Source of the DNA: an uncultured bacterium
Lineage (GTDB): Bacteria; JAGRBM01; JAHCIT01
Direction of reading: 5' to 3'
Length of the DNA: 64,000 nt
Assembly: GCA_964621525.1 (NCBI GenBank)
Contig: CAZUMS010000003.1
Coordinates: forward strand, 37,129 to 101,128
The translations under genes were made by a program, and so were the position numbers. Positions 6,084 through 46,393 of the stretch are shown here, one piece after another (the stretch's first letter is position 1; the number at the start of each line of letters is the position of its first letter). The notes beneath the pieces were generated by a model. The model saw only the letters and a list, made by a program, of their open reading frames with translations, was not told where the DNA came from and did not search any database.

Positions 6084-7583
6084 TCAGCCGCGGCTTCCGT
6101 GGAGCGTATCGCCCACGTAGCACTCGATGCCGAGTTCCTTGAGGTCGAGACCCTCGACTTCCTCTTCCTCGGACACGCGGACGCCCATCACGGCTTTCAC
6201 CGCATACCAGACCACCAGGCTCGCCGGGAACGCATAGGCTCCGACAGCGACGATGCCGATGATCTGATTGATGAGCTGGCCGGCGCCGCCTCCGTAGAAG
6301 AGGCCGAGGCCGGGCTGGGCTTCTCCGCCGGCAAAGGCCGGAGCGGCGAACAGGCCCACGCAGAGCGTGCCCCAGATCCCGTTGGCGAGGTGGACCGAGA
6401 GCGCGCCGACCGGGTCGTCGATCTTCAGCTTGTCCCAGAACAGCACGCTGTAGAAGCAGAGGATGCCGCCGACCGCGCCGATCACGAACGCGCCGCCTGC
6501 CGTTACCCAGGCGCACGGGGCGGTGATCGCCACGAGGCCCGCGAGGCAGCCGTTCAGCGACATGCCAAGGTCAGGCTTGCCGAACGTGATCCAGGCGATA
6601 GCCGTCGCGGTCGCCATGCCTGCCACTGCGGCGATATTCGTCGTCATGGCGATGTGGGCGATGGCGCCGCCGTCCCAGGTCATGGTCGAGCCGGGGTTGA
6701 ACCCGAACCAGCCGAGCCACAGGATCAGCGTGCCGAGCACGACGAGCGGAATTGAGTGGGCCGGAATCGCGTTGACCTTGCCGTCGGCCGAGTACTTGCC
6801 GATACGCGGCCCGATCACGAGGATGCCGGCGAGACCCGCCCAGCCGCCCACCGAGTGGACGACCGTGGAGCCCGCGAAGTCCCAGAATCCCTTGCCGGCG
6901 AGCCAGCCGGCACCCCAGATCCACTTGCCGGGGACCGGGTAAACCAGTGCTGTCAGCAGGAATGCGAAGACAACGAAGGAGAGATACTTGTTCCGCTCGT
7001 CCACGCAGCCGGAGACGATCGTCGCGGCCGTGCCGGCGAAGGCGAGCTGGAAGAAGAACTTGCCTTCCAGCGCCACGTTCGCCCAGCCGAGGGCGCCGGT
7101 GTAAAGTTCTTCAGGACCGATAAATGGCGTGAAAGAGCCCAGGAAGCCGCTTCCCTCGCCGAACATGAGCGAGAACCCGATCACCCAGTAGGCGAGCGTC
7201 GCCGCGCCGAACACGACGAAGTTCTTGCCGAGGATCGTGGCCGCGTTCTTCTTGCGGCAGAAACCGCTCTCCACAAGCGCGAAACCGGCGTTCATGAAGA
7301 ACACCAGGAAGCCGGCGATCATCGTCCAGACCGTATCGGCCGAAAACTTGATCGCATCGGTGCGGGCCTTCAGTTCTTCAAGCTGCTTGCTCAGCTCTTC
7401 CGTCGAAGGACCGGCCGGGGCTGCCGCGGCAGCCGGTGCCGCTTCGGCGGGCGGAGCGGCCTCAGCCGGTGCGGCCGCTGCTTCGGCCGGCGGCGGCGTG
7501 TCCTGCGCCGTGACGAGGGACGGACGCCAGAGCGCCGCCCCCAGCAGCATCAGTGCGAGAATTACTGTGGATTTCTTCAACAT
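6084..7583 (-). CDS. amt: ammonium transporter (Amt/MEP family), paralog 1
   Basis: 499 aa; signal peptide plus Ala/Pro-rich linker, then the Amt core (DTVWTMIAGFLVFFMNAGFALVESG ... 11 TM). Confidence 0.9.
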   Translation of the reverse strand: MLKKSTVILALMLLGAALWRPSLVTAQDTPPPAEAAAAPAEAAPPAEAAPAAAAAPAGPSTEELSKQLEELKARTDAIKFSADTVWTMIAGFLVFFMNAGFALVESGFCRKKNAATILGKNFVVFGAATLAYWVIGFSLMFGEGSGFLGSFTPFIGPEELYTGALGWANVALEGKFFFQLAFAGTAATIVSGCVDERNKYLSFVVFAFLLTALVYPVPGKWIWGAGWLAGKGFWDFAGSTVVHSVGGWAGLAGILVIGPRIGKYSADGKVNAIPAHSIPLVVLGTLILWLGWFGFNPGSTMTWDGGAIAHIAMTTNIAAVAGMATATAIAWITFGKPDLGMSLNGCLAGLVAITAPCAWVTAGGAFVIGAVGGILCFYSVLFWDKLKIDDPVGALSVHLANGIWGTLCVGLFAAPAFAGGEAQPGLGLFYGGGAGQLINQIIGIVAVGAYAFPASLVVWYAVKAVMGVRVSEEEEVEGLDLKELGIECYVGDTLHGSRG

Positions 7584-7800
7584 GGCTTTTCCTGCCTCTC
7601 CCGTTTTTCATCGTTCGGGAACGGAACCCTTGGAAGATCACCGGCGGACCTCCGGCCTTTACAACCTGTCCGTCTGCCGGATCCATTTCAGACCCGGCGG
7701 GGATCTCTTCGGGTTCCGGACCTCGTTTCAAATGGTTTTTGTCTCTCAGGCGAGACAGGCCGGGCCGGGTGGATCGGACGGCACGGCAGTCTTTCCCACC
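7584..7800 (-). promoter_or_regulatory. amt1 5' leader (~215 nt) with conserved 5' block
   Basis: Minus-strand block gggaaagac..gtgccg..gatccacccgg.ccgg..gtct.gcctgag (plus 7741-7800) is shared with the amt2 leader (plus 10196-10245); it lies immediately downstream of the predicted sigma54 promoter. Confidence 0.5.
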
Positions 7801-7809
7801 GGGGCGGAC

Positions 7810-7825
7810 TGCACTTGGCAGGCCA
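7810..7825 (-). promoter_or_regulatory. sigma54 (RpoN) -24/-12 promoter for amt1
   Basis: Minus strand TGGCCTGCCAAGTGCA: GG and GC in canonical positions (TGGCAC-N5-TTGCA spacing). Confidence 0.55.
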
Positions 7826-8085
7826 CGATGATCTGCAGCCGGACAAAAAGCGCCTGAAGGCAGGGTTGAATCCGCCGGAAGTTCAGGACGCGACAAACAA
7901 ACTCAAGCTACTGTAAGTATAAGCGAAATTAAGGAATCCTCCCCCGGCTGAAGGCACAGCTTTCGGGGTTCATTTTTTTGTCAAGGCTACAGGCTCCCGG
8001 CCCGGAACTAGTGTCTAAATATGTTGCAAGGATGCGGCTGAGAGCCGAGGCTTTGCCCGGAAATTGTGCATCCGGACGAAAATGG

Positions 8086-8349
8086 GGGCCGGTGCCCAGC
8101 CAGGGATTGGGAAAACCGGGTCCAGTACCGTTTTGCCGGAGCCCGTCAGCCGGATCATTTGCACGATCCGGCGATCCCGTGACGGTTCCGAGTACCGGAC
8201 CTCGGTCGAGGAAACCCTCTGCCGGGCGCCGGCCTGCCCAAGGTCGTTGCGAAGCGGCGGAACCCGAAGGAGAAGAGGCACCATTGGCTGCGCGGCGGTT
8301 GCGTTGCGGTTCATGTTGCCTCCCTCCTTCAGTGTCCGGCTTCCAGGCG
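8086..8349. repeat. conserved ~265-nt noncoding element, copy B (immediately 3' of amt2)
   Basis: See copy A. Contains SD gaaggagggagg plus ATG ~36 nt after the amt2 stop (track ORF 8015..8314). Confidence 0.7.
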
Positions 8350-10038
8350 TCAGCGGGCGTGCGGGGTCTCGGACGCCTTGTCCATCACGACACCCACATA
8401 CGCGGCGCAGCCCATTTCCGGGATATCAAGACCCTCAATCTCGGCTTCCACGGGTGTCCTGAGACCGACAGTCACATCGAGCAGCTTGAAGACCGCAAAA
8501 CCGATGGCGCCCACATAGACGAAGTTCGTGAGCACGCCGATCGACTGGGCGATGAACTGGCTCGCATCTCCGTAGAAGAGGCCCTTCACCGGACCGGCAA
8601 CGCCGTTCCAGCCATCGCCGTAGGAACCGTCGGCGAAAAGACCCAGGGCGAGGCAGCCCCAGGCGCCGTTCACGCCATGGACCGCCACCGCACCTACCGG
8701 GTCGTCGATCTTGAGGACGCGCTCGATGAAGAACACGGCCTCGACCACGATGATGCCGGAGACGAGCCCGATGATGCAGGAGGCCATGGAGTTCACGAAC
8801 GCACAGGGTGCCGTGATCGCCACAAGCCCGGCGAGCATACCGTTCGCCATCATGCTGGGATCCGGCTTACCCATCCGGAAAGCCCAGCAGTAGAGCGTGG
8901 CCGCGAGCGCGCCGGTCATGGATGCGAGCATCGTGTTCACGGCTACCACTGCCAGACGAAGATCCGTGCCAGCGAGTGTTGAACCGGGGTTAAACCCGAA
9001 CCAGCCGAAAGCGAGAATAAAGGTGCCGATGATTGCCATCGGAATGTTGTGGCCGGGGATCGGGTTCGGCGAGCCGTCCTTGTTGTATTTTCCGGCGCGG
9101 GGGCCAATCAGCCATCCGCCCACGAGCGCGAGCACGCCGCCCGTCATGTGCACGACCGAGGAGCCGGCGAAATCCACATGCCCGTGACCGAGGCCGTAAT
9201 ACTTGCCCAGCGTCGCCAGGAAGCCGCCGCCCCAGACCCAGCAGCCGTAGATCGGATAAATGATCGTGCCGACGGCGAGGCCATAGAGGAAGAACGACTT
9301 GTAGTTCCAGCGTTCGGCCATGGAACCGGTGGGAATCGTCGCCGTGGTGTCCATGAACACCATCTGGAAGAGGAACAGCGCGAAGATCGAGACATCGTAG
9401 ACGTCGGATCCGAGGAAGAAGCCCTTCGTACCGAACAGCACCCAGTCGTTACCGCCCACCTTGATCGAGAAGGCGGAGTTCAGCACATCCGTGCCGCCCA
9501 GCGTGCCCAGCGCCCCGAAGCCGCCGAACATGAAAGCGAAGCCGCACACGTAGAAACCGAGCATCCCGAGCGGATAGATCAGGAAGTTCATGGCCATTGT
9601 ATGCGACGCATTCTTGGCGCGGGTGAAGCCGGTCTCGACCATGGCGAATCCGGCCTGCATGAACATGACGAGGAAGCCGGCCAGCATGGTCCACACCATG
9701 TTGATCGAAACCTTGTTCTTGCCGACCTGGTTGGCGACGTCGCCCAGGGTCAACTTACCGGCTTCCGACTGAGGAACATCGGTCATGTTGCCCGTGGCGC
9801 CGCCACTGGGATCCGGCGCCCGCGGCGAGGCCGGCGCCTCGACCGTAATGCTCATCTCCACTGGCGCGGGCGGCGCTGCCGGCGGAGCGGGTGTGGCGGC
9901 GGCCTCTGCCGCCGGCGCAGAAGTCTCCGCCGGAGGTGGTACGGTTTCGTCGGCATTGGCCCAGTGGGGAACAATCAGTAGCGCGGCTGCGAACCAGACG
10001 ATCGCCGCAAAACTCATAATCTTTCTGGATTTACTCAT
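8350..10038 (-). CDS. amt: ammonium transporter (Amt/MEP family), paralog 2
   Basis: 562 aa; signal peptide MSKSRKIMSFAAIVWFAAALLIVPHWANA, Pro/Ala-rich linker, Amt core (NMVWTMLAGFLVMFMQAGFAMVETG). About 50% identity to paralog 1. Confidence 0.9.
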   Translation of the reverse strand: MSKSRKIMSFAAIVWFAAALLIVPHWANADETVPPPAETSAPAAEAAATPAPPAAPPAPVEMSITVEAPASPRAPDPSGGATGNMTDVPQSEAGKLTLGDVANQVGKNKVSINMVWTMLAGFLVMFMQAGFAMVETGFTRAKNASHTMAMNFLIYPLGMLGFYVCGFAFMFGGFGALGTLGGTDVLNSAFSIKVGGNDWVLFGTKGFFLGSDVYDVSIFALFLFQMVFMDTTATIPTGSMAERWNYKSFFLYGLAVGTIIYPIYGCWVWGGGFLATLGKYYGLGHGHVDFAGSSVVHMTGGVLALVGGWLIGPRAGKYNKDGSPNPIPGHNIPMAIIGTFILAFGWFGFNPGSTLAGTDLRLAVVAVNTMLASMTGALAATLYCWAFRMGKPDPSMMANGMLAGLVAITAPCAFVNSMASCIIGLVSGIIVVEAVFFIERVLKIDDPVGAVAVHGVNGAWGCLALGLFADGSYGDGWNGVAGPVKGLFYGDASQFIAQSIGVLTNFVYVGAIGFAVFKLLDVTVGLRTPVEAEIEGLDIPEMGCAAYVGVVMDKASETPHAR

Positions 10039-10248
10039 GATCGGTTTCCTGTCTCTCCATGAAATTCACTGCCGCCGTTTCACTTCATCCTGCGGGAGCC
10101 CGGCGCCGGAATCCGTCGTCGGCCCTTCTGGATGGAGCAGCCGACTCAAGCTCGTCGGCGGTTTCAGCAGTGCCGTTGTTGAGGCCTCAGGCAGACGGAC
10201 CGGTCCGGGTGGATCTGGCGGCACAGTCGTCTTTCCCGTCCGAGACGA

Positions 10249-10264
10249 AGCATCAGCTATGCCA
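10249..10264 (-). promoter_or_regulatory. sigma54 (RpoN) -24/-12 promoter for amt2
   Basis: Minus strand TGGCATAGCTGATGCT: TGGCAT-N5-ATGCT with GG/GC at canonical spacing; followed by a leader conserved with amt1. Confidence 0.55.
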
Positions 10265-10460
10265 TAAAAATGAACTAAAAATTTTAGTCTATTTCCGAGA
10301 TATATTCGGAAGAAATATCGGGAATAACGATGTCGAAATTTAATTCATAAGTATATGATATTATTTATATATTTTACCAATTACGGAGATAAATACAGCA
10401 CACCCGAAGGGACGTATTATCCTTCAAATAAATTGTACTAAAAATATGTGTTCATTCTTC
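10265..10460. promoter_or_regulatory. AT-rich island (~200 bp, roughly 25-30% GC) upstream of the amt2 sigma54 promoter
   Basis: Sequence aaaaatgaactaaaaattttagtctatttccgagatatattcgg...tatatgatattatttatatattttaccaatt in a ~67% GC genome; position fits an enhancer/IHF-bending region for a sigma54 promoter. Confidence 0.45.
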
Positions 10461-10967
10461 AAACACCGGTTGAGAACCGTGCGAGGATTTCCGTAATGCC
10501 TCAAAAATTGGCGATTCGAAGACCTGTCGCCCCATTTCTGGGCACATCTGTTCTTTCACCTCTGAATCCCGCTGCCGGAATGTCCAAAAACATGCTCTGT
10601 GGAAATCATTTTCTACCTTTTATTTCACATGGTTATAAAAGTCCTACGTATTCCGAAGCTCCCGGTGGAGTTCTTGGTTTCTGCCTTGCACATTGGGGAA
10701 ACGCTGAACCGGCCTGCCAGAGGATGGGGAACGTCCCGGTCGGGACCGGAAAGCCCGGTCCATACTGTTCTGTTAAGGACAGCTGGATCAGGAGAGCGGT
10801 CGGCAAGGTGGGACGGCGCCGGGTGAAAAACCGGCGCACCGGTGGATTCGGAACCCGTTAAACCCGGCACTCCAAAGAACAAGAAGCCGGTATCAGAGCC
10901 GTCCGGCGGGAGTGCGGAGGAAATCCGCCCCGCCCATGGCAACCCGGATTCCGGGTAGCTAGGTTAG

Positions 10968-11342
<375 letters not shown>

Positions 11343-11494
11343 TCCTGGAATAAAGAGTTCAAGATATCGGCAGGCGGCAGCAGGATCCCGTGCGGCAGCC
11401 GGCCGGAGGCGGGCAAGCGGCAACTGAAAAGGTGCAGGCTCCCGGTGGAAAACCAAAGCAGGGAAAAACAAACCCAAGGAGCACTGGTGTCATT

Positions 11495-12913
11495 ATGACG
11501 ACAGGCAAAGACGTTCTGAAAATGATCAAGGACCACGGCGTCGAGATGGTGGACCTCAAGTTCACCGACTTCCTCGGCTCGTGGCAGCACAAGAGTCACC
11601 CGATCAACATGATCGACGAGGATACGTTCACCGACGGCCTCGGTTTCGACGGCAGCTCGATCCGCGGCTGGGCCGACATCCAGGAATCGGACATGCTCTC
11701 GATCCCGGACCCCTCGACCGCCCGCATCGACCCGTTCATGCAGCATCCGACGCTGTCGCTCGTCTGCGACATCGTGGATCCCATCACCCGCCAGCCGTAT
11801 TCCCGCGACCCGCGCTATATCGCCAGGAAGGCCGAGGCCTACCTGAAGTCGACCGGTATCGGCGACACGGCCTATATCGGGCCGGAGCCGGAATTCTTCA
11901 TTTTTGACGACATCCGGTACGAGGTCGGCCAGCACAAGTCGTTCGTCTCGATCGACTCGGGCGAGGCCCACTGGAACTCGGGCCGCGACGAAGGCGGCAA
12001 CCAGGGCTACAAGATCCGCCCGAAGGAAGGCTACTTCCCGGTTTCCCCGTTCGACCAGCAGCAGGACATCCGCACGGAAATGTGCCTCGTCATGCAGAAG
12101 GTCGGCATCGCGGTCGAAACGCAGCACCACGAAGTCGCCACTGCCGGCCAGGCCGAGATCGACATGGTGTTCGACTCGCTGCTGAACATGGCCGACAAGG
12201 TGATGTGGTACAAGTACATCTGCCGCAACGTCGCCAAGCGCCACGGCAAGGTCGTGACGTTCATGCCGAAGCCCATGCCGGCCGACAACGGGTCGGGCAT
12301 GCACACCCACCAGTCGGTGTGGAAGGGCGGCAAGAACCTGTTCGCGGGCAGCGGCTACGGCGGACTGTCCGAGTTCGGCCTCTACTACATCGGCGGCATC
12401 CTGAAGCACGCCAAGGCTCTCAACGCCTTCACGAACCCGACGCTGAACAGCTACCGCCGTCTGGTTCCGGGCTTCGAGGCGCCGGTGTCCCTGGCCTACT
12501 CGTGCCGTAACCGCTCGGCCTCCTGCCGCATCCCGATGTACAGCAACAGCCCGAAGTCCAAGCGTGTGGAAGTCCGCTTCCCCGACGCGACCTGCAATCC
12601 GTACATCGCTTTCGCCGCCATGCTCATGGCCGGCCTCGACGGTGTTCAGAACAAGATCAACCCGGGCGATGCGCTGGACAAGAACCTGTACGATCTCTCG
12701 CCGGAAGAGCTCGCCAACGTGCCGCAGGCCTGCGGCTCGCTGGAAGAGGCGCTCGAGGCTCTGGAGAACGACCACAAGTTCCTCCTGAAGGGCGACGTCT
12801 TCACGAAGGACGTGATCGACACGCAGCTCGCCTGGAAGCGTCACCACGAAATCGACGTGGCCCGTTTCACGGTTCCGCCGATCGAGCACAAGCTCTACTT
12901 CGACGCCGGCTGA
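11495..12913 (+). CDS. glnA: glutamine synthetase type I
   Basis: 472 aa from [32 protein letters not shown]; SD aaggag 15 nt upstream; GS-I motifs ([25 protein letters not shown]). The track ORF begins 35 codons upstream at a GTG. Confidence 0.95.
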
Positions 12914-13034
12914 TCGCCAGCGCCCCGAAGCGGCCTGCAAGGCGCCGATGCGCTCCTTTCCTCTGGGAAAGGGGCGCATCGCGCTTTTACGGGTCCCGTT
13001 CCACCCGCGCTCCCCGTCCGCTACCCTAGCCCTC

Positions 13035-14063
13035 ATGCCGAAGGTGTCCGTGCTGATTCCGGTCTACAACGGCGCGCCGTTTCTCGGGGACGCGCTGGAG
13101 AGCGTGCTCGCGCAGGAGGGCGCGCCGGATTTCGAGATCGTTACGGCCGACGACGGATCTGCCGATGCCACCCCGGCCCTGCTGGAGCGCTTCGTCCGCC
13201 GGGACGCCCGCATCCGGGCGCTTCGCCTTCCGCACGGGGGAATCGCGAAAACCCTTTCGGCAGGACTTGAGGCGTGCCGGGCTCCTTATGTCTGCCGCCT
13301 CGATGCCGACGACCTGATGCCGCCCGGGCGCCTCGCCGCGCAGACCGCCTTTCTGGAGACGAACCCCGGCGTTACCGCCGTTTCCGGTATGGTCGTCCAC
13401 GAACCCCACCCGGAGATTCCCTCGGACGGCATGGCAAACTACGTTGCCTGGATGAACCGCCAGAAGACCCACGAGGAGATGCTTGCCGCCATCTGGACCG
13501 ATTCGCCGGTCGCCCACCCGTCGGTGATGTTCCGGCGGGATGCGGTCCTTGAAGCGGGCGGCTACGCCAGTGTCCCGTGGCCCGAGGACACGGACCTGTG
13601 GTTCCGGCTGCTGCTCCGGGGCCGGCGGTTCGCCAAGCTCGACACCGGGGTCCTCTGCTGGCGGGATCACGGCAGCCGTCTGACCCGGACCGACAATGGC
13701 CATTACGGCCCCGCCGCGCAGGCGGCGATGAAGGCTCATTACCTGCCGAGGTTTTTCCCCCGCGCGGCCCGCCACGGCGTCACCGTCATCGGCGCCGGCC
13801 CGTTCGGAAAACGGCTCGCGAAATCCCTCGCCGCCGGCGGCGTGCGTGTGAACCGGTTTGTGGATGTGGACCCGCGCAAGATCGGCAGCAGCCGCCTCGG
13901 CATTCCCGTTTTGTCCGCCAGGGACCTGCGCCCGGACGACGGCGACCTGCTCGTATCCGCCGTTGGAACGCCCGGAGCGCGCGAGCTGATCCGGAGCGAA
14001 CTTGCAGGACTCGGAATCCCGGCTAGCCACGGAGGAGACACCCGTGTCGTCTTCTGCCACTGA
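13035..14063 (+). CDS. family 2 glycosyltransferase with C-terminal Rossmann-like (GxGxxG) extension
   Basis: MPKVSVLIPVYNGAPFLGDALESVLAQ...DDGSAD... GT2 (GT-A) N-domain with DxD-like CRLDADD; C-terminal VTVIGAGPFGKRLAKSLAAGGVRV. Confidence 0.75.
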   Translation: MPKVSVLIPVYNGAPFLGDALESVLAQEGAPDFEIVTADDGSADATPALLERFVRRDARIRALRLPHGGIAKTLSAGLEACRAPYVCRLDADDLMPPGRLAAQTAFLETNPGVTAVSGMVVHEPHPEIPSDGMANYVAWMNRQKTHEEMLAAIWTDSPVAHPSVMFRRDAVLEAGGYASVPWPEDTDLWFRLLLRGRRFAKLDTGVLCWRDHGSRLTRTDNGHYGPAAQAAMKAHYLPRFFPRAARHGVTVIGAGPFGKRLAKSLAAGGVRVNRFVDVDPRKIGSSRLGIPVLSARDLRPDDGDLLVSAVGTPGARELIRSELAGLGIPASHGGDTRVVFCH

Positions 14064-14565: not shown

Positions 14566-14987
14566 GCCTCTACAGCAATCCCGGACAGGCGATCGAAACC
14601 CTCACCGTGCAGGTGATGACAGGCAGCGTGCGGTGGGTGTTTCCGTTGTCGGGCGTAAAATCGTTCGTCGAGATCCAGGCGGTCTATCCGCTCCCGCCGC
14701 CAGCCGCCTGGGACGGTCTCGTCCGGATCGACGGAGCGGCCTACTGTATCAGGATATTGAGGGAGGCGGGTGGCGACCCCGTGCCCGCAGTTCCTTTCAA
14801 GGGCTGCCTGATCGAGCGCGGACGGATCCCGGTGGTTCTCGGCTTCGAGAAGTTCGTGACCGGGCGGGGCCCGGAGGAGTTCGAGCCGGTGCCCGAAGGC
14901 AGCGGGCCGTTTCCCGGCGTCACGGGCCGGACCGTCCTCCCCGGTGGACCCTGCTACCATATCGACACCGGTAAATTGATCGTTTAG
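14562..14987 (+). CDS. CheW-like domain protein
   Basis: From MSLYSNPGQAIETLTVQVMTGSVRWVFPLSGVKSFVEIQAVYPLPPPAAWDGLVRIDGAAYCIRIL...PVVLGFEKFV..EEFEPVPE; aligns with both CheW subdomains; ATGA overlap with the upstream gene. Confidence 0.5.
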   Translation: MSLYSNPGQAIETLTVQVMTGSVRWVFPLSGVKSFVEIQAVYPLPPPAAWDGLVRIDGAAYCIRILREAGGDPVPAVPFKGCLIERGRIPVVLGFEKFVTGRGPEEFEPVPEGSGPFPGVTGRTVLPGGPCYHIDTGKLIV

Positions 14988-15093
14988 AGTCCCCTCACTG
15001 ACGTCCCATGAGGTCCCTGCACCCGGAGGCCGCGAGGGTTTTTAGGCCCCCCAAAGCCCTGGTTGCGGGAACCGCCCGGAACAGGTGTAACGC

Positions 15094-16359
15094 ATGCCGA
15101 AGAAAATCCTGGTCGCCGACGATTCCGTCACCATCCAGCGGGCCGTCCAGATCACCTTTTCAAACCAGCCGGATTTCACCGTCGAGTTCGCCAGGGACGG
15201 GGACGAGGCGCTCGCGAAGTTCAAGGCATCGAAACCCGATGCCGTCGTCGCCGACGTCGTGATGCCGAAGAAGAACGGTTACGACGTCGCCGAGGCGCTC
15301 AAGGGCCAGGGCGTGCCGGTGGTGCTGCTCAAGGTCAACTCCGAACCCTACAACGATGCCCGTGCGGCCGCCGCCGGAGTTGTCGAGGCGGTGCCGAAGC
15401 CCTTCGAAACGACGGCCCTCGTAGACGCCGTGAAGAACGCCATCGCCAAAGGCGCGGGCAAGGGCGCACCCGCCCCTGCCGCCGCGAAGCCCGCTGCTGC
15501 CCCGGCGGCGCCCAAACCGGTGGCTCCGGCACCTGCGGCGGCGAAGCCTGCGCCCGCCAAGGCGCCGGTTTCCCTCGAAGAAGAGACCGATTCGTGGGAT
15601 CTCGGCGAACCCGAAGCAGCCCCCGCCCCCGTGGCGGCCAAGGCTCCGGCTCCCGCGAAACCCGCCGCTCCTGTTCTCAAAGCTCCGCCTCCCTCGCCGC
15701 CCAAGCCGGCGCCAAAAGCGGTCGAGGAAGACTCGTGGGATCTTGGCGAACCGGAGGCTCCGGCAGCAGCCGCATCCCTCGAAGCCGAAGTCGAAGTCTC
15801 CGTCGAGACGGCGGCGGAGTCCCCCGCCTGGGATCTCGGCGAGACGGAAGCCGTTCCGGCTGAGACCGAAGCCGAAGTCGAGGTCGAACTGGCGGCCAGC
15901 GGCGGCGACATGTGGGATCTAGGCGAAACTGAAGCCGCCCCGGCCGTTCCCCCCGCGTCGATTGCGCCGTCCTTCGGACGCCAGGCTCCGGCGGCCGAGG
16001 TGGAAGTCGAACTGGCCTCGGACGGCGGCGATACCTGGGATCTCGGCGAGCCAGAAGCTGCTCCGCCCGCTCCCGCGACGCCACAGAAAATTCCGGTGAC
16101 TCCGCCCCCCGCGCCGCCGCCAGCTGCCCGTGCGGCTCCGGTTGCTCCGGCGGCAAAATCTGCCCCCGCCGCCCCCGCCACCGCCGTTCAGGTCAATGCC
16201 GCCCAGATCGAAGCGGCCGTGCGACAGGCGATCGAGCTGGCGCTCAAGCCCATGATCGACGAATCCGTGAAGCGGATCTCGAAGGCGATTACCGACGAGT
16301 TCCCGAAGATCGCCGAACGGCTGATCCAGAACGAGATCGACCGGCTCAAGGAAGGCTGA
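15094..16359 (+). CDS. response regulator with Pro/Ala-rich repeat linker and conserved C-terminal helix (RomR-like architecture)
   Basis: N-terminal receiver (ILVADDS...DAVVADVVMPKKNGYD...LLKVNSEP); ~250-aa A/P/E-rich linker with 5 copies of xWDLGE(P/T)EA(A/V)P; C-terminal AVRQAIELALKPMIDESVKRISKAITDEFPKIAERLIQNEIDRLKEG. Confidence 0.6.
   Translation: MPKKILVADDSVTIQRAVQITFSNQPDFTVEFARDGDEALAKFKASKPDAVVADVVMPKKNGYDVAEALKGQGVPVVLLKVNSEPYNDARAAAAGVVEAVPKPFETTALVDAVKNAIAKGAGKGAPAPAAAKPAAAPAAPKPVAPAPAAAKPAPAKAPVSLEEETDSWDLGEPEAAPAPVAAKAPAPAKPAAPVLKAPPPSPPKPAPKAVEEDSWDLGEPEAPAAAASLEAEVEVSVETAAESPAWDLGETEAVPAETEAEVEVELAASGGDMWDLGETEAAPAVPPASIAPSFGRQAPAAEVEVELASDGGDTWDLGEPEAAPPAPATPQKIPVTPPPAPPPAARAAPVAPAAKSAPAAPATAVQVNAAQIEAAVRQAIELALKPMIDESVKRISKAITDEFPKIAERLIQNEIDRLKEG
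15590..16060 (+). repeat. five dispersed ~33-nt direct repeats (tgggatctcggcgaaccngaagc) encoding the WDLGE motifs
   Basis: gattcgtgggatctcggcgaacccgaagcagcc / gactcgtgggatcttggcgaaccggaggctccg / gcctgggatctcggcgagacggaagccgttccg / atgtgggatctaggcgaaactgaagccgccccg / acctgggatctcggcgagccagaagctgctccg. Confidence 0.7.
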
Positions 16360-18508: not shown

Positions 18509-19049
18509 GACTGTCTCCTTGCCGGGACCGGCAGCGCGTTTCTATAACTGCTCCACTGCCGTTCTCTGCCCTAACAAATACACAACTCGTGCCAGAAAAC
18601 CGCCGCGCGGGTTAAATGTGGATAACGGAGAAAACCCTTCTGGTAACAGCCGCTTACCGGGCCTGCGTCAATACGCCTGTTTACCTGTATCTTTTTGGTG
18701 TGAGCGTTGCCCCGTGCCCGGATCACAGGGTGTAATCCTGCGCAGACACCTGTCTGCAAACGGCACGCAAGCGTTGCGGGGTCTTGTGAATCTCCGCTCA
18801 CAGTTGTTGACAAGGGTCCACCCCCTGCTGGGCGGCAAAACGTGCGTCAGGTCACATGTAACCTGTTGAAATCCAAGGCTTATCAGCCCCCAACAAACGT
18901 GACTTGCATCGCTTCACATGGGAATTTTGGAGTGGTATGGTATTTGGGCTTCCGGGGGGACGCCGATTCAACCGATATAGTGCGACCTGCCGGAACCGCT
19001 GGCTGCGGGCCAGTGGTGGACTTTTATGTTCACGGGAGAAGAAGCCGTC
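18509..19049. promoter_or_regulatory. 540-bp reduced-GC divergent intergenic region with inverted repeats
   Basis: TGTGAatctccgcTCACA (~18786-18804), gtcacatgtaac near-palindrome (~18851), GTGACttgcatcgctTCAC (~18903), tggtatggtat direct repeat; GC visibly below the window average. Confidence 0.4.
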
Positions 19050-21023
19050 ATGAAGATAAAGCACAGTCGCTCGATCTGGAAAACCGTCGCGCTTTCAGCC
19101 GCCGCCCTGCTTGTTGCGGCGGGCTGCGAATCTCCCCAGGAGTCCGGCACCGCCCAGGTTCCGATCAACGTCCTCCTGAAACCAGCGGGCATATCTGCCG
19201 CCGCGCTGTCGCCGACCGTGAATGATCTCTGTGAAAGCGCCGCACTTCCTGAATATGTGCGGTTCCGGTTCACCGACGTCAATGGCGAACAGGCGCTCGA
19301 GCGCTACTACGAAGGGCTCCTCACCGAAGAGGATCTGGCCAATACCGGCGGCTTCGTGAAAACTCCCGATGATCTCCCGTACCGCGAGATCGTCTATGTG
19401 AATCCCTATATTGACCCCCTCCCCTACGAAGGTAATGCCGAGGTGGTGGGCAGCCTTTTTGAGCAATCTTCTTCCGGCCTCTCGGGTGTCTTCCTGTTGC
19501 CCAAAACCCGCCTCCGTATCGAGTTCACCGCCTGGACCCGTCCGGCCATTGAGGACGGTATTTATTCCGTGACGCCGCAGTTCTGTCAGGGCGAGACCGA
19601 TATCGAGATTACCGGCGATGACGAAGTGACTATCGAGGGCAATCGCGCGGAAACCGCCGAGGTCGATGTGAGCGTCCGGATGAACGGCAACACCGATGGC
19701 CCGGCCCCGTTCGCCTATTTCGCCCTTGTGGATTTCGATACCGGTTACGGTTTCCCTGTTCGCACGATCGCCGACGACGAGTTCGTGGACCCCTACAGCA
19801 ATTTTTCGGTGGACAACGCGAACGTGATCCCGGAAGTCCCGGTGGGTCGCGACTATACATTCGTCGCCTGGCATCCGGGCCGCTATCCGTACGGCGGCAA
19901 CGGCGGCTTCATCACGGAGATCCAGAACACCGGCAAATACGAGGTGGATGAGATCGATGACCTGACCACCGAAGGCGGCAGCGCCTCGGTGAACATCAAC
20001 CTGTCGCAGGACCAGCCGCTCATTTTCTTCGGAATTGATGAAGATGCACCTAGAGGGATTCCAACAGTTGCAATTTCCGCCGATGATCGCTCGAAAAGCG
20101 CTTCGGACGAGGCCGAGAGGGCCGAAAAGTTCAAGGGTGCCCTCGATGTCATCGGCGCCATCAAGATCTGCAATCTCGCCGACGGTGACGAATACAACGC
20201 TGGCTACTCTATCAATGACTATGACTGTGCTACTGGCAATTTGGCAGAGCCCATGCTGACGCCGCCCGAAATGGCTTTTGTCAGCGGCGCTTACGGCTAT
20301 GAATATAGCTCCAATTCCGGGTTCGCCCTCGAACGGACCGAGGCGCTCGCCGATAAGGACTTCTTTATATCAGAAGAAGGACTGACCATTACGGCCAATG
20401 CAACCTATGGGTATGTGTCTATACCAGTGCCTGATCCCGACCGTTCCTCGGGCCGCGGCCTCGACACCAACGTCATTCAGCCGGACTGGGGTGTGGGCCT
20501 TGCACGGTCGTTCTGTGTCTATACCAAGTACGTTGCCGGCATTGAGGCGAAGTTCACCTCCGCCCGCCTGTTCGACGATCCTTCCAGCAAGATCTCCGAG
20601 GCGAACCTGTACCAGTCCCAGGATTCCGCCGTGAAGAACGGTCTCTGCCGCGCCGACAGCGAAAGCGCCACGATCCTGAACCCCGGCATCTCGCTCCGGA
20701 ACGGTGTCTTCTTCCAGACCCGCCGGAACCTGGCCCCGGCGAACTTCACCGGCACGTTCAATAACAACGATTCCAATAATTTCGGCTTCACTGTTCCGCC
20801 GGGCTTCGACGTCATCATCGTACCCGAGCCCGGCGACGGCCAGCGGCCACACTTCGACCCCCCCGCCATCTTCTGCGATGACGGGGCCTGCTTCGGCGAA
20901 GCCCTGTGTAGTTTTGCCGCTGGCCAGGAAATGCGCGCCTACAGCGTGGGCCCGAACGAGGTCCCATCGCTTGAGTTCCTTTCCCTGACAGTGGGCGTGG
21001 GCTCGGAAGACGCCTGTTTCTGA
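19050..21023 (+). CDS. acidic Cys-containing lipoprotein of unknown function (657 aa)
   Basis: MKIKHSRSIWKTVALSAAALLVAAGC lipobox; SD gggagaagaag; D/E/N/Y-rich; codon usage and GC (~55%) lower than neighbours. Confidence 0.7.
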   Translation: MKIKHSRSIWKTVALSAAALLVAAGCESPQESGTAQVPINVLLKPAGISAAALSPTVNDLCESAALPEYVRFRFTDVNGEQALERYYEGLLTEEDLANTGGFVKTPDDLPYREIVYVNPYIDPLPYEGNAEVVGSLFEQSSSGLSGVFLLPKTRLRIEFTAWTRPAIEDGIYSVTPQFCQGETDIEITGDDEVTIEGNRAETAEVDVSVRMNGNTDGPAPFAYFALVDFDTGYGFPVRTIADDEFVDPYSNFSVDNANVIPEVPVGRDYTFVAWHPGRYPYGGNGGFITEIQNTGKYEVDEIDDLTTEGGSASVNINLSQDQPLIFFGIDEDAPRGIPTVAISADDRSKSASDEAERAEKFKGALDVIGAIKICNLADGDEYNAGYSINDYDCATGNLAEPMLTPPEMAFVSGAYGYEYSSNSGFALERTEALADKDFFISEEGLTITANATYGYVSIPVPDPDRSSGRGLDTNVIQPDWGVGLARSFCVYTKYVAGIEAKFTSARLFDDPSSKISEANLYQSQDSAVKNGLCRADSESATILNPGISLRNGVFFQTRRNLAPANFTGTFNNNDSNNFGFTVPPGFDVIIVPEPGDGQRPHFDPPAIFCDDGACFGEALCSFAAGQEMRAYSVGPNEVPSLEFLSLTVGVGSEDACF

Positions 21024-24902: not shown

Positions 24903-25322
24903 GAGAGGGGTACCACCTTGCGCGGAGACGCCATCTCTGAAGGCTGGGGCTTCCGCGAAAGCGCCCAAGCTATAGTCCCCCTCCCCGGCGGTCAAGATCG
25001 GATCCGGGCGCGGACAACGCCGGTTCCGCCCGAACCGGACCCGTGCTCTTTCACGGGAAAACGGCGCGATCTGCATACCACCTTCAGCCGATTTCCCGAT
25101 TAGTTACCGGGACTTGCAACGCACGCCCGGTTCCGGGTATTCTTCAAGCCGACTCGCAGTTCCAGATTGTTTTCTGTCCCACCTGCGAAACGAGGAGGCC
25201 GTGCGTGAATTCGCCCGGCCGGTCCGGCTGCATCCCGAATGCTGCGGACCCTCTGTAGCGGCCACGCAGGTCTCCCCGGCATACGCAGTCTTTCCGTTCT
25301 GGATGTACACAGGAGTTTTCCC

Positions 25323-28300
25323 GTGCCGAACCGCCGTCTTTCGATTCTGGCCCTCACCCTCGTTGCCGGCCTGCTGGGTTTTTCCCCGGCCCATGCCCTG
25401 AATGTCGAATGGGAGAACGCCTTCGGCAGCCGGGGCGAAGGTTCCGGCCAGTTCAGCACGCCCCTTCACGCCGCCGTCGACGAGAAGGGTAACTATCACG
25501 TCACCGATTCCCGGAACGGCCGGGTCCAGGTGTTCGATCCGAAGGGACTCTATCTGCGTTCCTACGGGCATCTCTCCTCGCCCCGGCTGTCGCGGCCCTC
25601 GGGCATCGCCATCAGCCCGGTCACGAAGCTGATCTTCGTCACCGACACGGACCAGCATCTTCTGTTTGTCTTCAACCCGGACGGAACGCTCAAGGAAACC
25701 CTTGGCGGCAGCGGTTCGGAGCCTGGCTACCTGAGCAGCCCGCAGGGCGTCTCCGTGGGCCGGGGCGGCCGGGTCTACGTCGCAGATACCGGCAACGGCC
25801 GCATTTCCGTGTTCGGCGAGGACGGCCTGTTCCTCGGCGTCTTCGGCCCCGAGACCCGGAACACGGTCGCCACGCTCAAGAAGCCCGTGGATGTCGCCAC
25901 AGACATCGAGGAAACGCTCTACGTCGCCGACGCGGGCCTGAGGGAAGTGGTCATTTTCAGCCGCGAGTGGCGGCGTCTCACCAAGATCGGGCGCGAGCGG
26001 GGGTTCGACACCCCCGCAGCGGTCGCCGCCGATCGCTACGGTAGCGTCGCCATGCTGGACGAGGGCAGCCAGCGGATCTTCCATTTCGCCGCCGGCCAGA
26101 AGCCGCTTCAGACCTTCGGTTCCGAGGGCACCGCGCAGGCCCAGTTCCAGGACGCAGGCGGCCTCCTGTTCGACGAAGTGAACAACCGGTTCGTGGTCGT
26201 GGACGGCGGCAACCAGCGGGTCCAGACCTTCCGGCACCGGAGCCGTGAGGAACAGCAGGAGCTGCCGCCTTACCAGCCCGGTTTCACGCTCGAATACGTT
26301 CGTTCGATCTCCGCCCGCGCTGATGATCTGGATGCGGCTGACGGACGGCTTTATGCCTTGAACCGCGAGGCGAAAGAAATCCGCATCTATTCGGCCGACG
26401 GAGCCGAGCAGGGCCGCATCCCGCTCAAGTGGGGTTCCAAGGACGATACCGACGATCCTTCGCGGATCCTGTTCGCCAGCGACACGGTCTATGTGACCGA
26501 CTCGGGCGCAGGCGACGTGAAGATGTTCGACCCCAAGGGAGTATTCCGCGGACGCATGGGCTCCAAGGGATCGGAACCGGGCAAGCTCCGGGATCCAAAG
26601 GGCATGTTTGCCGATGAACGGTTCATCTATGTGGTCGACCGGGGCAACGACCGGATCTCGCTGTTCAGTCCGAACGGCGGCTTCGTGACCGTGAATCAGG
26701 CGAAAGGATCGGGCGAACTGGATGAGCCCTGGGACGTCGTTACCGACCGTGAAGGGAATCTCTACGTGGCCGATGAAGGCCGCAATCAGGTCATGAAATA
26801 TTCACGAAACAGCCAGTTCCTCAATGCCCTCTGCAAGGAGGGTTACGGGCCGGGGTTTCTCCAAGGCCCCGTCTCCATCGAGATCGACAAGATGGAAGTG
26901 CTCTATGTGCTGGACGAGAACGGAGTTACGGTCGCCGACCGGGAGTGCAAGCCCATCGCCCGCTTCGGAGCCGGAAAGGGCAAGGGCAAGGGCCGCTTCC
27001 AGCTGCCCGGCGGTCTTGCCGTGGATGATTCCCGCGGCGTGCAGATCTACTTTTCGGACCCCGCCAACAATGTGATTCATGTGGTCGCCTACAAGCAGAC
27101 GCCTACGGCGGCCGTGAATTTCAAGGCGGCGCCCGGCAAGACCGGCGCCACCTTCAGCTGGGACGGCCCGCAGGAAGCATTCCGCGAAACCTGGGTGCTC
27201 GAAGGCGCCGTGAAGCCCGACGGCCCGTTCTCGAAGGTCGTCGAAGCGAAGGCATCGCCCGTCACCGTGAACTACCCCGTGGCCGGGGACCCGGTGTATT
27301 TCCGGGTCGTGGCGAGGAGTTTCTCGGGCGTCGAAAGTGCGCCCTCCCTCGTCGTTACGGACGTCTACCGCCAGGCGCAGCTCTATTTCGCGGCCCGGCA
27401 GTACGACGCGGCCCTGACCAAGGCGGACGAATATCTCTCGGGCGTTCCCGATCAGCCGGACGCCCTGCTGCTCAAGGCCCGTACGCTGACAGCCCTCACG
27501 CAGCCGCAACGGGCCGCGGAAATCTACCGTAAGCTGGCCGAAGTGGCGGGTTACGAGGAAACCGCCCTCGAGGAACTGGGCCGCATCCATGCCGCCGAGG
27601 GCAAGTACCGCGAGGCGACCGAGGCCGCGACGAGACTGCTCACAAAGAACGACAAGTCGGTGGCGGGATACAAGCTGCTGGCCGAGGTCGCCCTTGCCTC
27701 GGGCTCGCTCGACGATTCCATCTCACAGTCGGCGCGGGCGCTGGCCATCGCCCCCGACGACACGGGTGCCATGGATCTGCAGGCGAAGGCCTATATCAAG
27801 AAGGGTCTCGGCGACGAGGCGATCCGCATCTATTCAGCCGCGATCAAGATCAACAAGACCGATCCACGCCTCTACGCCGGCATCTCGGCGGCGCTTCTCG
27901 CCACAAACCGGCCCAGCCAGGCGGTTCCCTACCTCCAGTGGGTCGTGAAGACGCAGCCCAAGGAAGTTCCCGCCCGCGCCATGCTCGCCCGGGCGCTTCT
28001 GGCCTCCAAACAGCCAACCCCCGCCGCCGAACAGGCGGAGGAGATCAAGAAACTCGCGCCGGATTCGCCAGAAGGGTACGAACTCGCAGGCTTCGCGGCC
28101 CGTGATCTCGGCAATGCCGGAAAGGCGATCTTCGAGCTCGAGCAGGCGGCCCGCAAGGACCCGCAGAACCCCCGCTACCAGATCCAGCTCGGACTGCTCT
28201 ATCAGCAGAACAACCGTCCGGGAGACGCCAGCCAGGCGTTCCAGAAGGCTATCGCACTCACGCCGAATACGGCCAAGGAACGCCGCGTGCTGGCGGACCA

Positions 28301-29171
28301 GCTCTTCGAAGCCAAGCTCTACCCGCTGGCGGTCATCGAATACGACAATGTCTTCAAGCTGGATCCCAAACAGACGGATGCTCTCGTTCAGGGAGCCGAG
28401 TGCTATTTCCTCCTGAACCGGACCGAGCCGGCCCGCAATCTGTATTTAAAGGCCATCGACGCCAATCCGAACGCGTCGGTGGCACATTTCCGCCTCGGCA
28501 GCATGCATATGACGGCCAAGGAGTTCGACAAGGCGGTTCCCCGGCTCATGCTCGCCGCCCGGATCGACCCCCGCCAACCGCTCTACCCAGCGCTGCTCGG
28601 CGATTCGTTCTCGGCCCTGGGCGACTACCGCTCGGCGTCCGAATCCTACCAGCTTGCGACGCAGCTCGAACCCACGAATGCCCAGTACCAGGCGAAGTTC
28701 CGCGAGGCGAAAGGCAAATACGACGCCGCTCCGTATGAACTCACCGGCCCGCTGGAAGTCGTGGACCTCACGGTGCCCGATCTCGAGCAGTCGTCGTTCG
28801 AGTCCTACCGGCAGAACGGCGCCCTCACGGTGAAGTTCGCCAACAACGCGGCGAAGCCCGTCTACCGGATCCGGCTCAAGTTCAGCGTCGTGGGGATGCT
28901 CCAGTATCCGTTCGAGGACCAGATCTCGTCCGTCGAAACGAAGGAAACGAAATCCCTCGTCGTGAAGCCCCGCTTCAACCAGGCGGCCATGGATCTTCCC
29001 GCCGACACCTTCGGGATTGCTGCATTCGAGATCGAATATTTCTTCCAGAAGAAACAGTACAACTACACGCTCTACCGGTCGGTGCTCATGAAAGCCGACC
29101 TCGCAGCCAGGAACACCCCTGCCCCCATGCCGGCAGTTACGCCGCCGCCTCCCGGCTATCCGGGGCGGTAG
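25323..29171 (+). CDS. secreted NHL-repeat beta-propeller / TPR-repeat protein (~1280 aa)
   Basis: GTG start with SD aggag; signal peptide NRRLSILALTLVAGLLGFSPAHA; at least 10 NHL-like units (GxGxGQFxxPxGvAvDxxGnvYVaDxxNxRvqvF); central Fn3-like segment; C-terminal ~15 TPR units. Confidence 0.75.
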   Translation: MPNRRLSILALTLVAGLLGFSPAHALNVEWENAFGSRGEGSGQFSTPLHAAVDEKGNYHVTDSRNGRVQVFDPKGLYLRSYGHLSSPRLSRPSGIAISPVTKLIFVTDTDQHLLFVFNPDGTLKETLGGSGSEPGYLSSPQGVSVGRGGRVYVADTGNGRISVFGEDGLFLGVFGPETRNTVATLKKPVDVATDIEETLYVADAGLREVVIFSREWRRLTKIGRERGFDTPAAVAADRYGSVAMLDEGSQRIFHFAAGQKPLQTFGSEGTAQAQFQDAGGLLFDEVNNRFVVVDGGNQRVQTFRHRSREEQQELPPYQPGFTLEYVRSISARADDLDAADGRLYALNREAKEIRIYSADGAEQGRIPLKWGSKDDTDDPSRILFASDTVYVTDSGAGDVKMFDPKGVFRGRMGSKGSEPGKLRDPKGMFADERFIYVVDRGNDRISLFSPNGGFVTVNQAKGSGELDEPWDVVTDREGNLYVADEGRNQVMKYSRNSQFLNALCKEGYGPGFLQGPVSIEIDKMEVLYVLDENGVTVADRECKPIARFGAGKGKGKGRFQLPGGLAVDDSRGVQIYFSDPANNVIHVVAYKQTPTAAVNFKAAPGKTGATFSWDGPQEAFRETWVLEGAVKPDGPFSKVVEAKASPVTVNYPVAGDPVYFRVVARSFSGVESAPSLVVTDVYRQAQLYFAARQYDAALTKADEYLSGVPDQPDALLLKARTLTALTQPQRAAEIYRKLAEVAGYEETALEELGRIHAAEGKYREATEAATRLLTKNDKSVAGYKLLAEVALASGSLDDSISQSARALAIAPDDTGAMDLQAKAYIKKGLGDEAIRIYSAAIKINKTDPRLYAGISAALLATNRPSQAVPYLQWVVKTQPKEVPARAMLARALLASKQPTPAAEQAEEIKKLAPDSPEGYELAGFAARDLGNAGKAIFELEQAARKDPQNPRYQIQLGLLYQQNNRPGDASQAFQKAIALTPNTAKERRVLADQLFEAKLYPLAVIEYDNVFKLDPKQTDALVQGAECYFLLNRTEPARNLYLKAIDANPNASVAHFRLGSMHMTAKEFDKAVPRLMLAARIDPRQPLYPALLGDSFSALGDYRSASESYQLATQLEPTNAQYQAKFREAKGKYDAAPYELTGPLEVVDLTVPDLEQSSFESYRQNGALTVKFANNAAKPVYRIRLKFSVVGMLQYPFEDQISSVETKETKSLVVKPRFNQAAMDLPADTFGIAAFEIEYFFQKKQYNYTLYRSVLMKADLAARNTPAPMPAVTPPPPGYPGR

Positions 29172-42700: not shown

Positions 42701-45748
<3,048 letters not shown>

Positions 45749-45752
<4 letters not shown>

Positions 45753-46393
45753 GGCGCATCCCCCTTCAGGACCACACTGCCGGTGGCGGTGGAAATGCCC
45801 GAGCTGTTCCACAGGCGCCAGACGAGCTCGGTTTCCGGTGCCGGATCTTCCTCGTAGAACAGCACCCCTGAAACCCGTTCCCCCGGCAGGAGCCGCCGGG
45901 CTTCCAGTGCGTGATTGCCGAAATCGGCGATCCGCTCCCGGTTCGGACCTCCCTGCATCGAGAGTGTAAGGCGTTCGGCTGGTGCCCAGAGGACAAGCAG
46001 AAGAAGGCGTATGAGACCGTAGCCGTCGTAGTTCACCGGCCGGTGCCTCCACGAAGTCATCATCGCCGCCCTGAGCGGCGGGAGCGGGTGCACCCCGATG
46101 CGGGTCGAAGACAGTGTGAAATCCCACGGCTCGAGATCGACGGGCTCTTCGAGTCCGTTCAGCACGGCGACGTGAACCGCAAGGACATGGTCGCTCGTGC
46201 CGGAGTCCCATTCGTTCTCGCCAAGTAGCCGGGCTTCAACCCTGACAGAACCGGCCGGGGGTTTTCCGGCCTCTGCCGCCGGGAGCCGGAGCGGCGCATA
46301 ACCGCACCCCGTCACGAGGCAGGCGGCAAATACCAGCGGAATCAGGAGACGTTTCACAAAGCCTATCGTTGCCGGAACGGTTCCGGCACGCAA
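45749..46393 (-). CDS. lipoprotein (~200 aa), unknown function
   Basis: VKRLLIPLVFAACLVTGCG lipobox; start ambiguous (TTG per track or internal GTG). Confidence 0.5.

Follow-up and report, generated by a model that had tools for sequence, protein, structure and literature searches.

We analysed a 64,000-nt stretch of DNA from an uncultured bacterium (contig CAZUMS010000003.1 of assembly GCA_964621525.1; the whole stretch is called here the window) and, within it, a response regulator (RR) gene of the RomR family whose product carries five copies of the peptide WDLGE in a disordered linker. Comparison of orthologous sequences shows that the pentapeptide has been preserved by purifying selection acting at the peptide level, and not by concerted evolution. 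The array is specific to a small clade, which lost the Trp of the C-terminal RomR-C region and gained two putatively CheW-like genes next to the RR gene. In our preferred reading, to which we assign a probability of about 0.55, the RR is a divergent polarity regulator of the RomR family, and the five peptides of its disordered linker are short linear motifs which, as an array, dock a folded partner. As far as sequence can tell, docking sites for a partner protein are the most likely role of the WDLGE peptides.

Constraint on the five WDLGE motifs

The coordinates of the gene, of its domains and of the motifs are given in Table 1. All five peptides quoted in a preliminary description of this DNA were present in the plus-strand open reading frame (ORF) 15094..16359, where they are contained, for example, in the 20-25-mer linker peptides EVEVELASDGGDTWDLGEPEAAPPA and VSLEEETDSWDLGEPEAAP. 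That description gave a repeat unit of 33 nt recurring every 30-45 residues. The five direct repeats were recovered, but the repeat search returned them as one family of five 36-nt copies with an identity of 69-83%, and the successive motifs of the window protein are spaced by 47, 31, 28 and 41 residues. Using a degenerate DNA pattern, TGGGAYCTNGGNGAR, we found five occurrences in the window, all within the RR gene, against 0.00 expected from 100 dinucleotide-preserving shuffles, and a six-frame scan of the same 64 kb detected no further WD[LIVM]G[ED] outside the five copies.

The five motif Trp are the only Trp in the whole protein, and the linker stretch aa 126-361 (~235 aa) contains, as other aromatics, one Phe only. 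The linker is strongly acidic (38 D+E vs 13 K+R, for a net charge of about -25 and an isoelectric point of about 4.1) and, by reading, rich in Ala, Pro and Glu; the sum of the three residues, ~59%, was measured on the linker of the orthologue P0001.

We built an AlphaFold2 (AF2) model of the full RR protein on a 34-sequence family alignment, and we considered the predicted local distance difference test (pLDDT) as means over blocks of 10 residues. The receiver domain (REC, aa 1-123) was modelled confidently, with block pLDDT of 93-98 over aa 1-120, and one unbroken helix was predicted at aa 369-420, with values of 88-93 over aa 371-420. Between them, aa 124-368 had no secondary structure of any kind (block pLDDT 39-67), in agreement with the earlier placement of the motifs in the linker of the RR. 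Pfam reported a single domain, Response_reg (PF00072, aa 5-114, E 1.3e-18). No bump of the block-averaged pLDDT was present at any of the five motifs, so the model shows no sign of motif folding or of docking in cis.

As full-length orthologues we considered four proteins, namely the window protein, the protein P0001 encoded by a Logan metagenome contig (L004), and the products of two contigs of metagenome-assembled genomes (L012 and L022). A fifth clade locus (L033) carries the start of the RR gene only. P0001 is the closest database protein, with 63% identity to the window protein. In 4/4 orthologues the motif count was exactly five and the order was the same, and W-D-L-G-E was unchanged in 20/20 copies. 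Within these 20 copies, Leu is encoded by 4 different codons, Gly by 3, Glu by 2 and Asp by 2, and each of the flank columns from -8 to -1 and from +5 to +12 holds 3-7 different residues. The flanks have preferences (D/E at -2, P/T/E at +5, E at +6, A at +7 and +8, P at +9), and the extended consensus is [DE]-x-W-D-L-G-E-[PTE]-E-A-A-P.

The linker is otherwise poorly conserved. Besides the motifs, only the acidic leaders VSLEEETDS- and EVEVEL-x6- and the island KIPVTPPPAPP are kept, and the distances between motifs range from 23 to 66 residues across the orthologues. Such variable spacing is what one usually sees with short linear motifs of disordered regions. The KIPVTPPPAPP island may be another short linear motif.

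The identity between orthologues at the four-fold silent sites of REC was only 31-55%, hence the lineages of the clade are old and deeply diverged. As the five copies stand in the same order in all four orthologues, the duplications that produced them are older than the divergence of the four genomes. The flank identity was 0.57 between orthologous copies, 0.47 between copies of the same genome and 0.46 between non-orthologous copies of different genomes. Flanks within a genome are therefore no closer than flanks between genomes, which means that the copies are not being homogenised. It is on these grounds, i.e. a core invariant in spite of synonymous-codon and flank variation and no homogenisation within genomes, that we attribute the conservation of the pentapeptide to purifying selection on the peptide. 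The preliminary description had left the choice between such selection and concerted evolution open; the first was borne out by the invariant copies with their synonymous variation and near-saturated silent sites, and the second was contradicted by the flank identities. It had also called for an alignment of orthologues, to see whether the copy number varies and whether the peptide is invariant: the copy number was fixed at five, the order was kept and WDLGE did not vary.

RomR family membership and the linkers of relatives

RomR was defined as a protein with a REC domain, an unstructured Pro-rich linker and a helical Glu-rich RomR-C with an invariant Trp and an invariant Pro (Keilberg 2012, PMC3441718). 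In Myxococcus xanthus RomR, W394 forms with E390, K391 and E402 the interface with MglC, and W394 is essential for MglC binding (Kodesia 2025, PMC12719032). We read the M. xanthus RomR-C sequence from the mutagenic primers in Table S1 of PMC12719032 (SREVIEKIA[W394]EVVPQLA).

Database matches of the window protein beyond P0001 covered the REC domain only, at 30-50% identity. Most of the best matches after P0001 were REC proteins ending in ...E[KR]I[AV]WEV[VI]P[DEQ]LAE..EEI.., and the signature E[KR]I[AV]WEV[VI]P[DEQ]LAE of these nearest homologues is that of M. xanthus, SREVIEKIAWEVVPQLA, which identifies the family as RomR. The C-terminal ...SKAITDEFPKIAERLIQNEIDRLKEG of the window protein aligns with ...EKIAWEVVPDLAERIIREEIRKIKEG of the homologue P0015 and with M. 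xanthus EKIAWEVVPQLAE. The position of the invariant Trp (M. xanthus W394) is occupied by Thr400 in the window protein and by Thr, Ser or Ala in the three orthologues; the window protein has Ser at the E390 position and keeps both Pro404 (in DEFPKIAE) and the last Glu, Glu408. A sequence/profile search of the PDB with the C-terminal helix gave nothing meaningful, in a PDB sequence set that had no RomR chain.

The receiver retains its acidic pocket (D9 and D10), the phospho-acceptor D54 and the Lys, K102. At the end of beta4, the place of the switch Thr/Ser is taken by Lys80 (15331-15333), which is Lys in 4/4 clade orthologues (LLKV in the alignment, vs LLTG in other RomR homologues and LMLT in PhoP).

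The gene order is shared across the family, with RR-ValRS-(QRPTase)-BirA-CoaX as its general form. We found RR-ValRS-BirA-CoaX in L004 and RR-ValRS in L022, both from the WDLGE clade, and the same RR-ValRS order in two loci with a canonical RomR-C (L005 and L007) and in two loci with a Trp-less RomR-C (L034 and L035). This common order indicates orthology rather than chance resemblance. In the window itself, the RR gene is followed by other genes (an FMO-like monooxygenase, YajQ and others), not by ValRS. An 883-aa ORF at 51499-54150 was considered as a displaced ValRS and ruled out, as it encodes a methyl-accepting chemotaxis protein (MCP).

The window protein, then, has the REC domain, the long unstructured linker, the helical C-terminus, the RomR-C Pro and, through the clade loci L004 and L022, the positional orthology of a RomR, and it lacks the RomR-C Trp. 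Because architecture, homology and gene order fit RomR and the invariant Trp is absent, we file it, on the alignments and loci compared, among the divergent variants of the RomR family rather than with canonical RomR proteins. The RomR assignment of the preliminary description is largely upheld by the RomR-C signature and by the gene order, with the qualification that Thr in place of the invariant Trp makes the protein atypical.

Pfam scans of the ORFs, limited to the 64-kb window, found no MglA-like GTPase and no Roadblock/LC7 protein, and no mglA, mglB, mglC or romX gene was seen within the same 64 kb. On contig L004, 8 kb downstream of the RR gene (11568-12605), a 345-aa protein has weak matches to Arf/Ras/Gtr1 small GTPases; genes for a small TPR protein and a SPOR-domain protein stand before its gene, and it may be a polarity GTPase. 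The preliminary description had suggested a small GTPase, a GAP or a scaffold as a possible partner of the motifs; of such candidates, the 64 kb contain neither an MglA nor an MglB gene.

The clade is rare. We found the identical window protein on three Logan contigs, and when the linker and the C-terminus were run by phmmer against 1.84 billion cluster representatives, P0001 was the only match. A 90-aa concatenate of the five motifs gave no phmmer match, probably through composition filtering, and this result has no bearing on how widely the motif occurs. A scan of a genome collection with the 23-nt degenerate motif gave 15 loci, two of which were true orthologues (L012 and L022); the other 13 were rejected, each having one match only, by chance, in an unrelated frame or protein. 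A metagenome scan, which asked for a pair of WDLGE codon strings separated by 54-84 nt, recovered no clade member, all its matches being tandem-repeat or junk DNA, and in the literature covered by a full-text search 'WDLGE' appeared in unrelated papers only.

The linkers of other RomR proteins have repeated or conserved motifs of their own. Those of P0007 and P0021 contain four copies of F[SG]GETRAFxKMSFE[DE]LQ and three of SPWDEPA, and P0027-type linkers contain three of DWxAQPA. The subgroup with a Trp-less RomR-C (P0017 to P0053) has single copies of WDPDLxGDP, YFDRLDAAF and DAFAALLAAEQ; it is also without the RomR-C Pro, and its members share the same locus (MM-CoA-mutase/B12 - RR - ValRS - QRPTase - BirA - CoaX). 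Among 77 RomR homologues, Asp is enriched beside the linker Trp by a factor of 4.5 at -1 and of 3.5 at +1, and the motif W-[DE]-[LVIMP] is present in 18/77. The named relatives belong to Acidobacteria, Thermoanaerobaculia and NC10. In view of these Trp-acidic motifs and of the Asp enrichment, the WDLGE array is, among the linkers compared, the most regular and most amplified case of a recurring RomR-linker theme. The motifs had earlier been set apart from those of characterised RomR linkers; this is correct in that the WDLGE array is not mentioned in PMC3441718, PMC10329633 or PMC12719032, and has to be restricted in that W-D/E motifs (SPWDEPA, WDPDLxGDP) occur in other linkers of the family.

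Table 1. Positions in the window of the RR gene, its domains and motifs, and the genes just upstream; each motif copy is given from the first base of its W codon.
Feature	Positions	Strand	Remarks
RomR-like response regulator gene	15094..16359	+	ORF; 421 aa: REC, disordered linker, C-terminal helix
Receiver domain, aa 1-123	15094..15462	+	Pfam match, AF2, alignments
Intrinsically disordered Ala/Pro/Glu-rich linker, aa 124-368	15463..16197	+	AF2, composition, charge
Motif copy 1, WDLGEPEA, W168	15595..15618	+	extended form VSLEEETDS-WDLGE
Motif copy 2, WDLGEPEA, W215	15736..15759	+	
Motif copy 3, WDLGETEA, W246	15829..15852	+	EVEVSVE before motif
Motif copy 4, WDLGETEA, W274	15913..15936	+	EVEVEL-x6 before motif; inside 81-nt repeat 15871-15951
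Motif copy 5, WDLGEPEA, W315	16036..16059	+	EVEVEL-x6 before motif; inside 81-nt repeat 15994-16074
Second linker island KIPVTPPPAPP, aa 332-342	16087..16119	+	just past motif 5; kept in 4/4 orthologues
RomR-C-like C-terminal helix, aa 369-421	16198..16356	+	AF2; alignable to family RomR-C
RomR-C signature SKAITDEFPKIAE	16279..16317	+	counterpart of M. xanthus E390-E402 (EKIAWEVVPQLAE)
Putative CheW-like protein A, 173 aa	14044..14565	+	sub-threshold Pfam, Foldseek, alignments; candidate partner
Putative CheW-like protein B, 141 aa	14562..14987	+	start overlaps stop of A (ATGA)
GT2 glycosyltransferase	12948..14063	+	first gene of conserved GT2-A-B-RR block

Docking partner and alternative readings

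According to the preferred reading, each motif would act in trans and dock on a folded partner, whose pocket would receive the Trp and whose basic surface would touch the acidic flanks. The docking logic may be compared with that of M. xanthus RomR-C, where Trp394 and Glu390/Glu402 are taken up by a cleft of MglC that is basic (PMC12719032). Five copies per chain would allow high-avidity multivalent recruitment or clustering and, if the C-terminal helix oligomerises like M. xanthus RomR-C, there would be 10-15 sites per oligomer.

The two genes between the GT2 glycosyltransferase gene and the RR gene provide the leading candidate for the partner. The order GT2-A-B-RR was found in 5/5 clade loci, and the A and B genes were absent from the five other family loci examined (three with canonical RomR, two with Trp-less RomR-C). 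At default thresholds A and B had zero Pfam matches. At relaxed thresholds CheW (PF01584) was the sole notable Pfam family, matched by 5/7 orthologous sequences with E from 6.8e-5 to 0.017. We also searched the PDB by Foldseek with the low-confidence model of A, and the top match was CheW 9a72_B (E 0.013, probability 0.93), with the CheW of T. tengcongensis (TtCheW 2qdl) at rank 4; profile searches of the PDB gave no CheW match, A having none at all and B one chance-level match to a ribosomal protein. From profile matches and modelled fold together, A and B are likely, but not proven, to be divergent CheW-like proteins. Only 3 homologues of A were found among 5.8 billion clusters, so A is as rare as the WDLGE regulator. 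The orthologue alignments of A show an invariant Arg-rich loop, SSRI[RK]R[TS]QGRRRPG, whose form in the window is SSRIRRTQGRRRPG.

We propose, as a tentative assignment of rather low probability, that the partner is A and/or B, on the basis of the exclusive co-occurrence, of the operon-like adjacency and of the Arg-rich loop of A, the linker being strongly acidic. Such a partnership would tie a chemosensory-type scaffold to a RomR-like hub. Several points weigh against it. Adjacency of genes alone is weak evidence of physical interaction, and the four or five genomes known make the co-occurrence statistics thin. The CheW-like character noted in the preliminary description is present but weak, since the CheW scores among the orthologous A and B sequences are 15-23 bits, below the Pfam gathering score of 23.5, and AF2 modelled A with low confidence only (pLDDT 49). 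In addition, single-copy WDPDLxGDP occurs in a RomR subgroup without CheW-like neighbours; as it resembles WDLGEP, the receptor could be an older conserved protein and not the CheW-like pair. We regard as unlikely a broader proposal, in which Trp-acidic motifs would be a general functional code of RomR linkers, amplified here to five copies, with docking of MglC by the C-terminal Trp abandoned and the CheW-like pair recruited instead, so that a chemosensory scaffold would be physically fused to a polarity scaffold.

Some further observations concern the neighbourhood. The C-terminal half of A is rich in Trp (PPEWW, VWW, VWV). Immediately before the RR gene there is a weak sigma-70-like site (14962-14990). 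An alternative partner may, by analogy, be the 1310-aa protein encoded at 25239-29171 (+), which has NHL/beta-propeller repeats at its N-terminus and a long array of TPRs, since Trp-acidic peptides are classically received by TPR and propeller domains. The 883-aa MCP (plus strand), with HAMP and signalling domains, is located 35 kb downstream of the RR gene and stands alone, with no che genes nearby. Upstream of the GT2-A-B-RR block, a nitrogen-assimilation cluster spans 6084-12913 and comprises ammonium transporters at 6084-7583 and 8350-10038 (minus strand), P-II at 11004-11342 and glutamine synthetase at 11390-12913; the order GlnA-GT2-A-B-RR is also found in L022. Four large ORFs of 402-665 aa (19026-21023, 31357-33000, 45003-46211 and 46413-48242) remained without a Pfam match at the E cut-off of 0.001, and a coding-like GC content at third codon positions was seen in at least two (19026-21023 and 46413-48242). 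A stand-alone protein of 170 aa with an Mrr-type restriction endonuclease domain is encoded at 48252-48764 (-).

The alternative that survives best, although we hold it to be unlikely, is that the Trp, evenly dispersed in a spacer that is acidic and Pro-rich, are 'stickers' of a homotypic or heterotypic kind and bring about condensate-like clustering of the scaffold, e.g. at a pole, without any folded receptor. The Trp content of the protein and the near absence of other aromatics in the counted linker stretch would suit this role, as would the dispersal of the Trp at 23-66-residue intervals that vary between orthologues. Stickers normally tolerate changes of context, yet here five residues, Gly and Glu included, are invariant in 20/20 copies, and a net charge of about -25 disfavours self-association of the linker unless a basic partner is present. 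The evidence from M. xanthus RomR points in both directions: the protein accumulates cooperatively at the poles and its linker was reported as a pole-targeting determinant (PMC3441718; PMC10329633), but its REC and its disordered region neither self-interact nor bind each other, and it is RomR-C that drives oligomerisation, into dimers and trimers (Carreira 2023, PMC10329633).

We consider it rather improbable that the motifs bind the REC domain or the C-terminal helix of the protein itself, in cis or between subunits, and serve in phosphorylation-controlled auto-inhibition or self-polymerisation. Acidic amphipathic peptides such as those of FliM and CheZ bind CheY-like domains at their alpha4-beta5-alpha5 face, and the REC of this clade is atypical, with Lys80 instead of the switch Thr; both facts speak for self-binding. 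However, the AF2 model of the full protein has neither structure nor a rise of block pLDDT at the motifs, the Gly and the Pro of the motif make a helix unlikely, and the receiver and disordered regions of M. xanthus RomR do not interact (PMC10329633).

It is highly improbable that the copies are alike only because a low-complexity region without function was recently duplicated or evolved in concert (gene conversion). Copies 4 and 5 do share a longer repeat of 81 nt with 77% identity, and third positions of the core are slightly more alike within genomes (0.62) than between orthologous copies (0.51). Against this stand the age of the duplications, which came before the four genomes diverged, the flank identities given above, and an amino-acid core that is invariant while its synonymous sites vary.

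Barely credible, finally, is a constraint on DNA or RNA rather than on the peptide, such as a protein-binding or methylation site including the GATC in TGGGATCT: the Asp codon is GAT in 17/20 copies (5/5 in the window), in a window whose genes prefer GAC (69% overall; GAT is 39% before CTN) and where GATC is ~2.4-fold over-represented (517 vs ~212 expected), but the motif encodes its Leu, Gly, Glu, Pro and Ala by freely varying codons, three copies have GAC, the conserved entity is the reading frame with its peptide, and Rfam matched zero RNA families in the window. With GAT as the Asp codon of each window copy, a GATC is found inside every repeat (15598, 15739, 15832, 15916 and 16039).

The docking of a folded partner by the five motifs is thus the reading that we prefer. 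The front-rear polarity switch best studied in bacteria has RomR, reportedly also treated by Leonardy in 2007, as its central scaffold at the poles. The variant described here is a natural one that keeps an invariant five-fold peptide array in a linker so far treated as non-conserved, as the M. xanthus linker was described (PMC3441718). The WDLGE array and the linker motifs of the other clades are concrete, mutable handles on what RomR linkers bind. Three coincident changes, i.e. the loss of the MglC-binding Trp, the gain of the WDLGE array and the gain of the CheW-like pair, suggest a natural rewiring of the polarity module. The impact is limited by the rarity of this uncultured clade and by the candidate status of the partner.

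Comparison with known systems

The closest known system is RomR of M. xanthus (MXAN_4461). The two proteins are alike in having a REC domain, a ~245-aa Pro/Ala-rich disordered linker and a ~50-aa C-terminal helix, in their length (421 vs 420 aa) and in an alignable C-terminal signature, in which the Pro and the last Glu are kept. They differ in that the window protein has Thr400 for W394, Ser for E390 and Lys80 for the switch Thr, and in that its clade has the five WDLGE linker motifs and, upstream, the two putative CheW-like genes. The homologues of uncultured bacteria (P0007, P0021, P0027, and P0017 to P0053) also have repeated or conserved Trp-acidic motifs in their linkers. None of these is WDLGE, no CheW-like neighbours were found at the loci examined, and copy number and regularity are highest in the window clade.

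In chemotaxis, a C-terminal pentapeptide of the NWETF type on chemoreceptors tethers CheR and CheB. The resemblance consists in a short peptide with Trp and acidic residues on a flexible linker; the pentapeptide stands at the linker's end in a chemosensory protein and recruits its folded partner through the insertion of aromatic side chains, as the WDLGE Trp would do in our reading. Unlike WDLGE, the pentapeptide is single-copy and strictly C-terminal, and it needs a second aromatic (positions 2 and 5); the WDLGE motifs are internal (aa 168-322 of 421) and five-fold, with Gly or Glu at position 5 and no second aromatic. The 883-aa MCP of the window is without a C-terminal pentapeptide of the NWETF class.

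Arrays of Trp motifs are well known in eukaryotes, e.g. the W-motifs of GW182 (bound by Argonaute and CNOT9), the DPW/DPF motifs of epsin/Eps15 (bound by the AP-2 appendage) and the W-acidic cargo motifs of kinesin-1 (bound by the KLC TPR). They have no homology to WDLGE, which is bacterial, and the likeness is one of analogy only: in both cases Trp-centred motifs with acidic or small residues are dispersed in a disordered region. In the eukaryotic arrays, the Trp sits in a pocket of a folded domain and avidity derives from the number of copies.

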